From an uncultured delta proteobacterium (GTDB lineage Bacteria > Desulfobacterota > Syntrophorhabdia > Syntrophorhabdales > WCHB1-27), in NCBI GenBank assembly GCA_963810935.1, contig CAWEPK010000017.1:170484-234483 (forward strand): 64,000 bases of DNA. Reading direction: 5' to 3'. Under the pieces are notes generated by a model. The model searched no databases and was not told where the DNA came from. It worked only from the letters and a program-made list of their open reading frames with translations. The position numbers and the translations under genes are program-made. Position 1 is the stretch's first letter, and each line of letters opens with the position of its first letter. Below are positions 2,971 through 38,492 of this stretch, one piece after another.

Positions 2971-3051
2971 GTATTCAACAAAATCGCGCCGCCCGGGCTG
3001 CTCGCCCGCGCCTGAGCCGGCCGACATGTCAACGCATCGGCGGAGGAACGC

Positions 3052-4470
3052 ATGGAAGCCCTGAAGCTCGTTGTCCCGATATATTTATTGATTTTCATTT
3101 TGGGCGGTTTCCGCAATATCAAGATGTTCCTCCTTCTCACCGGGATCGTAACGATGCCCTTCAGGACCACGTACACGATTCTCGATGTAGGGCCTTATAT
3201 CGGCTGGACGAACGGCATTAATATATCCCTCTCGGACGTCTCGTTCATCTGCCTCTTTGCGTACCTCGTTTTCAAGGGGGTAAAATTCGAGGGGGTATCG
3301 CGGAGGCTCACCGCAGCCTGCATGCTGTTCCTCGGCTCGGTGCTCCTCTCGACCATAAACTCGACCTGGATACGCCTCTCGTTCTTCGAGGCGATACTGC
3401 TCGTCCAGGTGTTCTTCCTTTATTATATCGTCCTGACCGCGGCCATCGAGACGGAGAAGGAGCTGCGCATGGTGATGGTCATGCTGATGCTCTCTCTGAT
3501 CCTCCAGGGGGCCCTCGGGACGGCCCAGTACCTTACGGGCAGGGACCTCGACGTGTTTGTCACGGGGACGCCCGTTACCGAGGAATCGGAGGAAGGGCTG
3601 GTCACGCGGGCCTTGGGGACGATAGGGAAACCTAACGGCCTGGCCATGTACGTAGCCCCCCTCATCCTGCTCGTAACGGCCATGATGATGAAAACAAGGG
3701 GCATTTACAGGAAACTGGGAATGTGTGCCGTGGCCCTCGGCGGATCCGCGCTGCTTTTCAGCTTTTCACGGGGCGGCTGGATGGCCTTTGCCATCGCCTT
3801 TCTCATGCTCCTTCTGGCCCTCTCGAAAGGAAAATACGTCAGGGCCAGGGGGCCGCTGCTGGCGCTGGCGGTCGGGGCGGTAGTGGTCTTCTTCTTTTTC
3901 AGCCAGATCGAGGGCCGCTTCGTCAGCCAGGAGGGCGCAGACGCTGCGCAGGACAGGATCTACCTCATCAAGATCGCATGGAACATGATAAAAGACAGCC
4001 CCATCCTGGGCGTCGGGGCGAACACGTTCATGTCGGTCATCGGCAGGTATACGCGCGGGCCCGACTTGCAGTACGTCTACCTGCATATGGTCCACAACCA
4101 GTACCTGCTCGTCTTCGCAGAGACGGGCCTCGTCGGCATACTCGCCTTCCTCTGGCTGATGCTCACCTGCTTCCGCGAGTCCCTCGACTGCACGCGCAGG
4201 AGGTCGAGCGAGCTGGCCCAGACGGTGGGCTTAAGCGCAGGTGCGGGCTTCATGGCGATGTCGATCCACATGATGGTCGACATGTACGCCTCTCCGCTGT
4301 GCCTGAGCCTGCTCTTCGTCTTTTGCAGCCTCTGCTCGGCAGTCAAGAAGATCAAATCGCCCCTTCCTGTCGAACAGCCCCGGACCGGCGGGCCGGCAAT
4401 GACGAACCTTGTGAGGCCTGCTCCGGAAACCGCTTTCGCGGGTGCCGACCCGATCCCGCACCTCTCTTAA
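3052..4470 (+). CDS. O-antigen ligase/Wzy-family membrane protein
   Basis: Multi-TM protein with RALGT..KPN, FSRGGW, PILGVG and HNQYL..AETG motifs; GGAGG RBS. Confidence 0.85.
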   Translation: MEALKLVVPIYLLIFILGGFRNIKMFLLLTGIVTMPFRTTYTILDVGPYIGWTNGINISLSDVSFICLFAYLVFKGVKFEGVSRRLTAACMLFLGSVLLSTINSTWIRLSFFEAILLVQVFFLYYIVLTAAIETEKELRMVMVMLMLSLILQGALGTAQYLTGRDLDVFVTGTPVTEESEEGLVTRALGTIGKPNGLAMYVAPLILLVTAMMMKTRGIYRKLGMCAVALGGSALLFSFSRGGWMAFAIAFLMLLLALSKGKYVRARGPLLALAVGAVVVFFFFSQIEGRFVSQEGADAAQDRIYLIKIAWNMIKDSPILGVGANTFMSVIGRYTRGPDLQYVYLHMVHNQYLLVFAETGLVGILAFLWLMLTCFRESLDCTRRRSSELAQTVGLSAGAGFMAMSIHMMVDMYASPLCLSLLFVFCSLCSAVKKIKSPLPVEQPRTGGPAMTNLVRPAPETAFAGADPIPHLS

Positions 4471-36132: not shown

Positions 36133-36933
36133 TTACGACCTGATAACGATAAAGGCCATTATGAGGACGGCAAGGCCCACGCGGTAGTAAGCGAACACGT
36201 CGAGGGTGTGTTTCTTCAGGTAGTGGATCAGGAAGGTCAGGCTCGCCAGGCCCGCAATGAAGGCTGAAAACGTCCCCGCCGCAAAGACCGTGCTCTCGTC
36301 CCCCTCGAAGAGGGGCATGTGGTGCATCTCCAGCAGCGCAACGCCGATGACGACGGGTATGGACAAAAGAAAAGCAAAATCCACCGCCTCCCTCCTCCGC
36401 AGGCCCAGCATTATGCCCATCGTTATCGTGATGCCGCTGCGCGATACTCCGGGGACAAGGGCGACGGCCTGGGCCAGGCCGATAGCGAGAGCGAAGGTGT
36501 AGGTTATTTTGTGCTCGCCCAGGTGAAGCCTCTCCGCGAGGATCATAAAGATGGAGACGACCACCAGGCTGAAGACGGAGACAAGCGGCGTCCTCACATA
36601 ATACTCGATGAGGTCTTTGAAAAGGAGCCCGAAGACGACCGCAGGCACGGTCCCGAGCGCAATCTTCATCACCATTGAATCGCGCAGCGAGCGCGACTCC
36701 GTTACCTTGCGCAAGTCCTCCCGGCACATCTGGACGATCTTCCCCGTGTATATAGAGAGAAGGGCGAAGGCCGTGCCGAAGTGGACCATCACGTCATAAT
36801 CGAGCTTGTCCACGTTGCCCGAGCTGACTTTGAAGAGCCACGGCACGGCTATCAGGTGGGCGCTCGAGCTTACAGGCAGGAACTCCGTAACACCCTGCAT
36901 CGCTCCCACAAGGACGCTCTCTACTACGGTCAT
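36133..36933 (-). CDS. uppP: Undecaprenyl-diphosphate phosphatase
   Basis: QGVTEFLPVSSSAH, PGVSRSGITI and F..YR motifs. Confidence 0.93.
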   Translation of the reverse strand: MTVVESVLVGAMQGVTEFLPVSSSAHLIAVPWLFKVSSGNVDKLDYDVMVHFGTAFALLSIYTGKIVQMCREDLRKVTESRSLRDSMVMKIALGTVPAVVFGLLFKDLIEYYVRTPLVSVFSLVVVSIFMILAERLHLGEHKITYTFALAIGLAQAVALVPGVSRSGITITMGIMLGLRRREAVDFAFLLSIPVVIGVALLEMHHMPLFEGDESTVFAAGTFSAFIAGLASLTFLIHYLKKHTLDVFAYYRVGLAVLIMAFIVIRS

Positions 36934-37115
36934 CTTGTAACATTACCTCCGTGGAGACGCGAGCCGGCAGCCGATCCGCAAGCCGGCACGGTCAGAGTAT
37001 ATCGCCGTTCGAAACGGCAATCAACCGTTGCGGCGCAGGCCGCCTCGCAGACGTGTAAATCCTGTCGTTCCGTGGTAATATTACTTACGGACATGGACTC
37101 AAGGAGAGACAGGCC

Positions 37116-37388
37116 ATGACATTGAAGGAAAGGATCGAGCAGACCCTGACAGGCCTCAATCCGAGGCTCGAAAGCCTGGCAAACGGGTACGTCGAGCTGA
37201 TGGACACCGACGAGGCCAAAAAAACGGTCACCCTGAAATCGTTCGGCGGCAGGCTTCACTGATGCGGGATGAACGCCCTCAGTTTGTGGGCGGAAAAGCT
37301 GCTCAAGGAAGAGGTGCCGGAGATCGCGGAGGTCAATATCGTCGACGTCTGCCAGTGCGGCGTCGATGAGCCCTTGCGCCCGGCTTGA
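37116..37388 (+). CDS. NifU/NfuA C-terminal-domain-like protein, 90 aa, with an in-frame UGA (putative selenocysteine at codon 49)
   Basis: AGGAGA RBS and ATG 37116. Translation: MTLKERIEQTLTGLNPRLESLANGYVELMDTDEAKKTVTLKSFGGRLH-U-CGMNALSLWAEKLLKEEVPEIAEVNIVDVCQCGVDEPLRPA. NifU-C resemblance continues on both sides of TGA 37260-37262; hairpin 11 nt downstream. Confidence 0.7.
37274..37292 (+). promoter_or_regulatory. Putative bacterial SECIS element of the NifU-like gene
   Basis: CGCCC-t-CA-[GTT]-TG-t-GGGCG stem starting 11 nt after the UGA; apical loop begins with GU. Confidence 0.6.
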
Positions 37389-37450
37389 TTTCCCACAACT
37401 TCATTTAATAAGCAAACTTTGCCGGGTGGGATATATGGCTCGCCCATCTG

Positions 37451-38053
37451 CTATGGACGGTTGATTAGCTCCGCAAGCGCCTCGTAAGGCTGAAAGCCGA
37501 CAAGCTTGCGATTGCCAAAGATGAAGGTCGGAACTGCTTCTATGCCCAAGGCGCGGGACCGTGTCCAATCGGCATCCACGGCCTGTTTGAATCTCCTGGA
37601 TAAGATAACTTGTCCGGCTTCCTCCTCAGGGAGACCGACGGATTCAGCAAGACGTATAAGTTCGCTCACCATGGCAATGTTCTTTCCTTCAACGAAATAG
37701 GCCCTGAAAACAGCGTGGTGGAACTCTTCTCCTTTGCCTTCCGACTCCGCCCACTTCGCAAGCTCCTGGGCGAGGCGGCTGTTGAATGTCATTGTGCGGC
37801 CGGATAAAGGCAGGGAGAGGTATTCCGCCACTTCCCTGAGGCGTTTCTGCATGGCGGAGATGTCCACATCCCTGCCGGCGAAGAGCTCTTCAAGGGCCAG
37901 TCCTCTTTCCGGCGTTTCAGGATGCAGAGGAAAGGCAAGCCATTTTACTTCTACGTCGTATTCCTTGATCAAGCGATCGGTACGGACCGTACTGAAATAG
38001 CACCACGGTCAGACGTAGTCGGAGAATACTTCAAGAATCGGGCGTTTTTCCAT
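37451..38053 (-). CDS. DsbA/FrnE-family thiol-disulfide oxidoreductase, selenoprotein (UPWC motif)
   Basis: ATG 38053 gives MEKRPILEVFSDYV-U-PWCYFSTVRTDRLIKEYDVEVKWLAFPLHPETP..., in frame with ORF 37451-37972. TGA 38011-38009 occupies the first Cys of the family motif SDxxCPWCY; cis-Pro motif AVPTF is present. Confidence 0.88.
37977..37995 (-). promoter_or_regulatory. Putative bacterial SECIS element of the DsbA-like gene
   Basis: Minus strand TC-a-GTACG-[GTC]-CGTAC-c-GA, starting 13 nt after the UGA; loop begins with GU. Confidence 0.65.
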
Positions 38054-38063
38054 ATGTCCCTGC

Positions 38064-38492
38064 CTATCCTATCCTGATCTCGCCTTTGTCCGCGTCGACC
38101 GTCACGTGGTCTCCATCCGACAGAAGGGCCAGCGAGTCGCCGTCTATGTTGTCGACCACCGGTATCGTGGTCCGGTAGAACTTCTCAGCCAGTATCGCCC
38201 CGGTGGCCAGTATCGGCTCCGTGAGCCGGTTGACGATTGCGGCAGGGGCTGTACCGCACCGCGCAAGCTCCAGCATGTAGACGGCGCCGCCGGTGGAGCC
38301 TCTCCCCTCGGGAAAGACCAGGACGGCGCCCGCTATCTTTCTGCCGTACAACTCGTGCCTCTTGTCGCTCACGATGCCCGTCCGGGGGTCGACTGCCCCG
38401 TAAAAGCCGAACGCCGATTTTGACACAACCGCCGGGCCGCTCGCCTTCCCGCGGGTGATGCCCCTTCCTTTCAAGACCCTTTGCCGTGGCAC
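38064..38492 (-). CDS. Aconitase X small (swivel) subunit, DUF126
   Basis: GTG 38492 follows GGAGG; F.FYG.VDP.TG, H.L.G..IAG.VLVFP.GRGST, APAAI and IPVVD motifs. Confidence 0.85.
   Translation of the reverse strand: MPRQRVLKGRGITRGKASGPAVVSKSAFGFYGAVDPRTGIVSDKRHELYGRKIAGAVLVFPEGRGSTGGAVYMLELARCGTAPAAIVNRLTEPILATGAILAEKFYRTTIPVVDNIDGDSLALLSDGDHVTVDADKGEIRIG

Follow-up and report, generated by a model that had tools for sequence, protein, structure and literature searches.

We identified, in the genome of an uncultured delta proteobacterium, a short gene whose product is predicted to be a selenocysteine (Sec)-containing variant of the Nfu family, and sequence comparison indicates that this variant is conserved in the Syntrophorhabdales and in a few other Desulfobacterota. 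The gene, referred to below as the Nfu-like Sec gene, lies in the window (the whole stretch of 64,000 nucleotides that was analyzed) and carries an in-frame UGA as codon 49. Judging from the comparative evidence, it is very probably a real gene for an Nfu-type selenoprotein in which this codon is decoded as Sec. As in known bacterial Sec insertion, SelB bound to Sec-tRNA(Sec) would bind a hairpin just downstream of the UGA, and the UGA would be read as Sec instead of terminating translation. In the encoded protein, the canonical cluster-binding G-A-C-x-x-C loop of Nfu is remodelled to G-G-R-L-H-U-C, so that Arg46 occupies the position of the first Cys and Sec49 that of the second.

An earlier reading of this DNA, made from the letters alone (the sequence-only reading), had proposed that a 90-codon gene with a ribosome-binding site is missing from the open reading frame (ORF) track. 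Both the sequence and the table 11 ORF listing bear this out, since the listing shows only a 48-codon piece at 37116 to 37262; the gene is hidden from the track because table 11 calling ends at the internal TGA, which is codon 49, whereas the terminal stop is the TGA at 37386 to 37388. The AGGAG within the putative ribosome-binding site lies 9 nt before the ATG at 37116, and 20-nt upstream strings of most orthologues contain a purine-rich GGAG-type motif at the same position. A promoter and terminator scan of 36850 to 37520 returned no terminator and one promoter-like site, which is on the minus strand. The features of the locus are as follows.

37101..37109, plus strand: ribosome-binding site AAGGAGAGA, read from the window sequence.
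37116..37388, plus strand: coding sequence of the predicted Nfu-like selenoprotein, from ATG to the terminal TGA, 90 residues.
37260..37262, plus strand: in-frame UGA, predicted Sec49; this column is TGA in 48 of 48 distinct DNA versions.
37263..37265, plus strand: Cys50, vicinal to Sec and invariant in the U-C sub-form.
37274..37292, plus strand: SECIS-like hairpin, overlapping codons 53 to 59 (N-A-L-S-L-W-A).
37350..37358, plus strand: C-terminal C-Q-C (residues 79 to 81), a lineage-specific tail; C-x-C occurs in family f1 relatives only.

A six-frame search took in 96 genomes of the GTDB order to which the window belongs, and 39 of them gave a match with the in-frame TGA at an E value of 4e-14 or lower. 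One further, weaker partial match was found in genome G049, and the weaker matches without a stop that occur in most genomes of the order represent canonical Nfu. U-C-G was located at one and the same column in all 30 loci that were fetched, Sec being residue 49 in 28 of them and residue 50 or 53 in the other two. Besides, 35 loci were obtained from a pattern scan in which each GTDB species was represented by a single genome; every one has TGA (33 with U-C and 2 with C-U), and the titles of these records name Syntrophorhabdales, Syntrophorhabdaceae, Syntrophorhabdus, "delta proteobacterium" or Thermodesulfobacteriota. The related records bearing the gene are all metagenome-assembled genomes (MAGs). 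Of 401 genomes sampled evenly from the phylum, 13 carry a Sec form, and 8 of these lie outside the order; the C-U form was found in eight genomes from three other families of the phylum.

Altogether, 48 distinct DNA versions were obtained from Syntrophorhabdales and other Desulfobacterota, and the TGA occupies the same column in all of them. The protein alignment of 30 orthologues (alignment A1) has a mean column identity of 55%, and Ala-54, Leu-55, Leu-57, Trp-58, Lys-61, and Leu-62, all of which lie beyond the UGA, are invariant in it. Thus, the prediction that homologues would share the UGA and continue as conserved coding sequence beyond it was confirmed by the matches in 39 of the 96 genomes, by the 48 versions, and by alignment A1. 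The same 30 orthologues end in TGA (16), TAA (7) or TAG (7), and because 16 of them terminate with TGA, this codon evidently remains an ordinary stop in these organisms.

The family is divided into two sub-forms that differ in the position of the Cys next to Sec. The U-C sub-form of the Syntrophorhabdales reads G-G-R-L-H-U-C-G-x-N/F-A-L-S-L-W, whereas the C-U sub-form of the other families reads G-G-R-L-C-U-G-G-P-D-V-A-L-S-L-W and is one residue longer; the partner Cys stands at +1 in the former and at -1 in the latter. The codon for Cys50 is TGC or TGT in all 39 U-C sequences. Two details that the sequence-only reading had emphasized turned out not to be general: the His of H-U-C, common as it is before Sec, is replaced by Leu, Ile, Asn, Met or Thr in some relatives, and the C-terminal C-x-C (C-Q-C, C-E-C or C-T-C) is confined to family f1, the GTDB family of the window. 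Even within this family, one locus (L029) has D-D in place of the last two residues of the C-x-C.

Several copies related to the Nfu-like Sec gene were also observed. In two genomes, a tandem paralogue is located directly upstream of the Sec gene (L036, 1807-2067, minus strand; L039, 2133-2399, minus strand), and the same paralogue genes are contained in loci L099 and L096. Its motif is R-G-L-L-I-A-N-G-I-N-A-C-C/S-L-W, with A-N where U-C would be expected; at the active-site column the paralogue thus lacks both Sec and Cys, and it has new Cys residues in helix 2. In L035 (about 3031-3175, plus strand) and likewise in L093, the Sec gene is followed at a distance of about 1.3 kb by a partial second copy, which corresponds to the C-terminal half. 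It reads H-Y-U-L-P-A-F-S-L-W-A-D-K-L-L, again with a TGA just before the helix, and looks like a duplication remnant. In one genome (L116, 5701-6440, plus strand), the N-terminal half of the Sec gene is out of frame with the remainder, and this apparent frameshift is due either to misassembly or to decay of the copy.

The read-through protein matched the Pfam NifU family (PF01106) over residues 7 to 73 with a borderline score of 27.1 bits against a cut-off of 27, and the rest of the Pfam scan of this protein gave two weak, unrelated families. The match accords with the proposal that the NifU pattern continues past the TGA at 37260 to 37262. Among the 30 orthologues, 27 matched NifU at an E value of 0.01 or lower, again across the stop, and 3 had no match. 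Because the match crosses the UGA, the Nfu domain would be incomplete without the downstream part.

We then considered which residues of canonical Nfu correspond to the Sec-Cys pair, using an alignment (A3) of the Sec forms with canonical Nfu proteins of the same phylum and with the canonical copy of the window genome itself. Sec falls on the second Cys of canonical G-A-C-x-x-C-P and Arg on the first, which upholds the alignment originally drawn for G-G-R-L-H-U-C, including the gain of a vicinal Cys. The canonical C-x-x-C motif is absent from the Sec forms, whose loop is R-L-H-U-C or R-L-C-U-G, and nearly all members of alignment A1 have Arg or Lys where the first cluster-ligand Cys would stand. 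The window genome keeps a canonical CxxC Nfu at G000:C10:271315-271515 (104 bits). In a maximum-likelihood tree of 45 rows, which leaves out the two A-N paralogue rows, the 36 Sec rows were separated from the 9 CxxC rows with a branch support of 95/87.

Two placements in this tree do not follow the taxonomy of the genomes: the Sec genes of L031 (G085, genus g1) and L033 (G079, family f1) group with family f4 sequences and not with their own family. Both are on short or fragmented contigs, and their placement could come from horizontal transfer or from a binning error.

An AlphaFold2 model computed with alignment A1 as input had a mean pLDDT of 79 and consisted of a helix (residues 3 to 22), two strands (24 to 32 and 37 to 44), a second helix (54 to 66), and a third strand (72 to 78), that is, an alpha-beta-beta-alpha-beta order. 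In the model, Sec49 and Cys50 are positioned in the loop between strand 2 and helix 2, just before the helix, and the pLDDT falls below 50 at residues 81 to 89, immediately after the C-terminal C-Q-C. The top Foldseek matches in the PDB were Arabidopsis CnfU (2z51), rice NifU-like C-terminal domains (1th5 and 2jnv), and the C-terminal domain of human NFU1 (2m5o), and 1xhj and 1veh were further best matches. From the sequence matches and the predicted model, the protein is best explained as a free-standing, single-domain Nfu/NifU C-terminal fold.

The sequence-only reading had also described a hairpin that begins 11 nt after the UGA and has a GU-starting loop, and we located it between C37274 and G37292 with the loop at G37282-U-U. 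Its stem is CGCCC/GGGCG, followed by a U.U mismatch, the inner pairs C-G and A-U, and the loop GUU. A distance of 11 nt is also that between the UGA and the SECIS of E. coli fdhF. The RNAalifold consensus of the 48 versions is a six-pair hairpin (GCCC / U.U mismatch / C-R ... U-G / GGGC) with an apical G-U-Y triloop; its distance from the UGA is 11 nt in the U-C form and 14 nt in the C-U form. All six core pairs are formed in each of the 48 sequences; one of them shows compensatory double changes (C-G to U-A twice and C-G to G-C once), and two toggle with G-U. A seventh, outer pair is formed in 30 of the 48 sequences only, where it appears as five different pair types. The covariation score was higher than those of 500 of 500 shuffles and of all slid registers.

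Because the hairpin overlaps conserved amino acids, synonymous sites were compared. The third-position entropy is 0 at Ala-54 (GCC in 39 of 39), Leu-55 (CTC in 39 of 39), and Leu-57 (always YTG), whereas it is 1.2 to 2.0 bits at twelve other conserved codons with 4- or 6-fold degeneracy. These frozen synonymous sites point to a constraint on the RNA and not on the protein alone, although part of the nucleotide conservation is at the protein level, since A-L-S-L-W is itself conserved. The single-sequence folding energy of the region was no better than that of shuffles (z = -0.69 and -0.64), and the case for an RNA element therefore rests on comparison rather than on energy. An Rfam scan of 36900 to 38200 at an E value of up to 10 gave no hit overlapping the hairpin and two chance-level hits elsewhere. 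The hairpin proved to be conserved among the homologues in its six pairs, in the compensatory changes, and at the synonymous sites.

We further searched the window genome for the Sec machinery, the presence of which had been named as a check on the selenoprotein. The components selA, selD, and tRNA-Sec are present, whereas selB is split over three frames in this assembly. selA was detected with 568 bits. Two selD genes are found at G000:C9:199342-200256 (minus strand) and at C8:20204-21109 (plus strand), one of which has an in-frame TGA (Sec form). Three tRNA-Sec genes (L014 to L016) lie at G000:C4:30323-30414, C6:4921-5012, and C11:126664-126755; ARAGORN called them tRNA-SeC with the anticodon tca, and their scores are near-identical at 71 bits. 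One of the three is at the very end of a contig, and the unusual number of copies may reflect a repeated region or contamination of the bin. selB (G000:C5:224288-226169; L002, L005, and L008) is in three pieces in three frames, with ORFs of 212, 283, and 144 residues. Since selB is a single open frame in the same-genus genomes G086 and G087, the split arises either from indels introduced by assembly or from a recent loss of selB in this strain. Across the order, 91 of the 96 genomes have selA; among the 39 carriers of the Nfu-like Sec gene it was found in 36, and the three carriers that gave no selA match are G071 (95% complete), G082 (80%), and G091 (73%).

The TGA at 37260 was also checked in other data. 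Three further samples from a single study (runs X2, X3, and X4) yielded contigs that read TGA, unchanged at 37260 to 37262; the sole difference nearby, at 37268, stems from short fragments belonging to related organisms.

Two explanations other than a Sec-decoded gene were weighed. A pseudogene, or a TGA that is an assembly or sequencing error, might be suspected from the fact that the window genome is a MAG with an estimated contamination of 7% and apparent frameshifts in selB. Against this, the frame is otherwise intact, the same codon is present in the 48 distinct versions from independent assemblies, and the contigs of the three other samples are unchanged at this codon. We regard this explanation as effectively refuted by the 48 versions together with the contigs of the other samples, and its remaining probability as negligible. 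The second explanation is that the UGA is not Sec, being either a genuine stop, with a peptide of 48 residues as the product, or a codon suppressed as Trp, Cys or Gly through near-cognate read-through or a variant code. Gene callers do terminate the protein at the UGA, the residue preceding it is the last one in at least 22 database representatives, two callers read W, and selB is fragmented in this assembly. Nevertheless, a true stop would leave the Nfu domain incomplete and accords poorly with the strong in-frame conservation downstream of the UGA; a structured element, the synonymous sites of which are frozen, is found at the SECIS spacing; the UGA aligns with a catalytic or ligand Cys; and Sec machinery is present in the window genome and, across the order, in 91 genomes out of 96. 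Besides, 16 of the 30 orthologues terminate in TGA. Thus, we consider a UGA that is not Sec to be very unlikely, and prefer the Nfu-type selenoprotein.

A profile search over 1.84 billion representative proteins gave 118 hits, of which 80 were canonical CxxC Nfu proteins and at least 22 were fragments ending one residue before the UGA. Two hits were full-length or near-full-length with W at the UGA and two others were C-terminal fragments; the hits also included one A-N paralogue (P0005) and a few unrelated long repeat proteins. Most selenoprotein families have an orthologue with Cys for Sec, whereas no such orthologue was found among the 118 hits from the 1.84 billion representatives. A search for homologous proteins with the read-through sequence returned a single fragment of 68 residues. 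The database fragments of the family have lengths of about 48 residues or slightly more and are called "hypothetical protein" wherever they are named.

In an NCBIfam scan of the window protein at an E value of up to 10, the only match was TIGR03341 (NfuA), with 21 bits against a cut-off of 269. The selenoprotein models of NCBIfam release 20.0 gave none for the Sec forms, which matched generic NfuA/NifU models only, far below the cut-offs. A 2026 review (PMC13188914, Table 1) lists 119 selenoprotein families or subfamilies, none with a NifU/PF01106 domain. Neither NifU nor Nfu occurs as a term in the texts of PMC9312934, PMC1794560, PMC1976440, and bioRxiv 10.1101/2022.07.06.499078, or in those of PMC12013277 and its four supplements. 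Searches of the non-subscription literature returned nothing relevant on a NifU or Nfu selenoprotein. The Nfu-like Sec family is therefore probably unrecognized so far.

We compared the protein with known systems. It resembles canonical Nfu (PF01106; 2z51 and 2m5o) in its length of about 75 to 90 residues, its alpha-beta-beta-alpha-beta fold, and its recognizable homology, but the C-x-x-C is gone, with Arg, Sec, and an added vicinal Cys instead, and helix 2 bears an A-L-S-L-W-A-E-K-L-L signature with an invariant Trp. Mammalian thioredoxin reductase has a C-terminal G-C-U-G redox centre, in which the vicinal Cys and Sec form a selenenylsulfide. The C-U-G-G sub-form resembles this centre at the level of a four-residue motif only: thioredoxin reductase is another protein, with another fold and from another domain of life, and its motif is C-terminal, whereas that of the present family is internal. 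The HesB-like selenoprotein (TIGR01911; related to IscA and A-type carriers) is likewise a small homologue of Fe-S assembly proteins and a listed selenoprotein (PMC13188914), and it occurs in Deltaproteobacteria, according to PMC1794560. Its fold and family are unrelated, however, and its motif is UxGP rather than U-C; no TIGR01911 match to the window protein appeared in the NCBIfam scan at an E value of up to 10. Finally, forms 1 (GxUC) and 2 (CU) of the '(2Fe-2S)-binding protein (CopZ family)' also have Sec adjoining Cys in a small protein with a metal- or Fe-S-related name (PMC13188914), but their domain is the BFD-like cd10141 and not NifU.

To describe the gene neighbourhood, ORFs were clustered in the 35 loci and the window, and 11 recurring clusters were annotated with Pfam. 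No neighbour common to the whole family was found among these ORFs. The recurring neighbours that could be annotated were ftsA, ftsZ, a radical SAM protein, an ABC transporter, a sigma-54 regulator, and, as a weak match, a ribosomal-L3-like protein. Pfam gave no match for three clusters, and two of the recurring clusters were antisense shadow ORFs of the Nfu-like gene itself. Because the neighbours differ between lineages, the neighbourhood gives no clue to function.

In the window, the convergent neighbour (37451-38053, minus strand) encodes a 200-residue DsbA-like protein (PF01323) with an in-frame TGA at codon 15. Its motif is D-Y-V-U-P-W-C (UxxC), only a 173-residue piece is present as a table 11 ORF, and the UGA is directly followed by a strong hairpin with a folding energy of -15.5 kcal/mol (z = -2.1). 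The protein agrees with the selenoprotein family published as 'DsbA-like protein form 1.' This gene adjoins the Nfu-like gene in the genome of the window only.

What the Sec-Cys pair might do can be considered on the assumption that the protein is a selenoprotein. In a redox role, the adjacent Sec and Cys would cycle between a selenolate/thiolate and a vicinal selenenylsulfide, and the pair would have a part in Fe-S or sulfur/selenium trafficking, where its substrate or cargo would be persulfide, perselenide or sulfide, which it would either reduce or carry. On sequence grounds, we regard such a redox centre as plausible, if somewhat short of probable. It is favoured because the partner Cys swaps between +1 and -1, for which adjacency of the two residues is a better fit than a fixed ligand geometry. 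In canonical Nfu, the CxxC motifs of two chains bridge a cluster, and the protein may instead be an Nfu-type Fe-S carrier, the homodimer of which would bridge a [4Fe-4S] or [2Fe-2S] cluster via Sec49 and Cys50 of each chain, resulting in a selenolate-ligated transfer cluster. The Nfu fold and homology are in keeping with such a carrier, as are the location of Sec exactly at the second cluster-ligand Cys, the retention of two chalcogen ligands per chain, and the listing of other small Fe-S-related Sec proteins in PMC13188914 (HesB-like, UxGP; '(2Fe-2S)-binding protein,' GxUC and CU). Yet the first ligand Cys has given way to Arg or Lys in nearly all members, the shift of the partner Cys from +1 to -1 with a one-residue insertion would change the ligand geometry, and a canonical CxxC Nfu is kept elsewhere in the genome; a cluster carrier thus seems possible and rather unlikely.

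Alternatively, the vicinal Cys and Sec could form a binding site for soft metals or metalloids (Hg, As, Cu or selenide itself), in which case the Nfu scaffold would serve a chaperone or a factor of detoxification. The C-U-G-G sub-form of this family and several families with a CU motif that are listed under metal-related names in PMC13188914 (MerB-like SaoL, HgcA, and metal-binding MbdU) are compatible with this, but no metal-resistance or transport gene recurs among the Pfam-annotated clusters in the 6-kb flanks of the 35 loci. We take soft-metal binding to be improbable, and the redox centre remains the reading that we favour for the Sec-Cys pair.

The genes for selenoproteins are routinely shortened by annotation, and this family is public only as fragments. 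Its recognition would be an addition to the prokaryotic selenoproteome, specifically to the toolkit of Fe-S biogenesis. Since no Cys orthologue was found and the partner Cys follows Sec in one sub-form and precedes it in the other, the family may serve as a clean system in which to compare selenium with sulfur on an Fe-S carrier scaffold. In addition, the predicted SECIS, a compact and well-conserved natural element of 17 to 19 nt with a GUY triloop, may be useful in studies of SelB recognition outside the Enterobacteria. More tentatively, and as an idea that we hold to be doubtful, the family may be an obligate-selenium branch of Nfu that lacks a Cys counterpart, in which an Fe-S (or Fe-Se) cluster would be held or handed on by a selenolate ligand, or which would act as a dedicated selenium/sulfur relay for the assembly of clusters or cofactors in these anaerobic, syntrophic bacteria. 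If this is true, the branch would provide Fe-S trafficking with its first component on the Nfu scaffold that depends on selenium.
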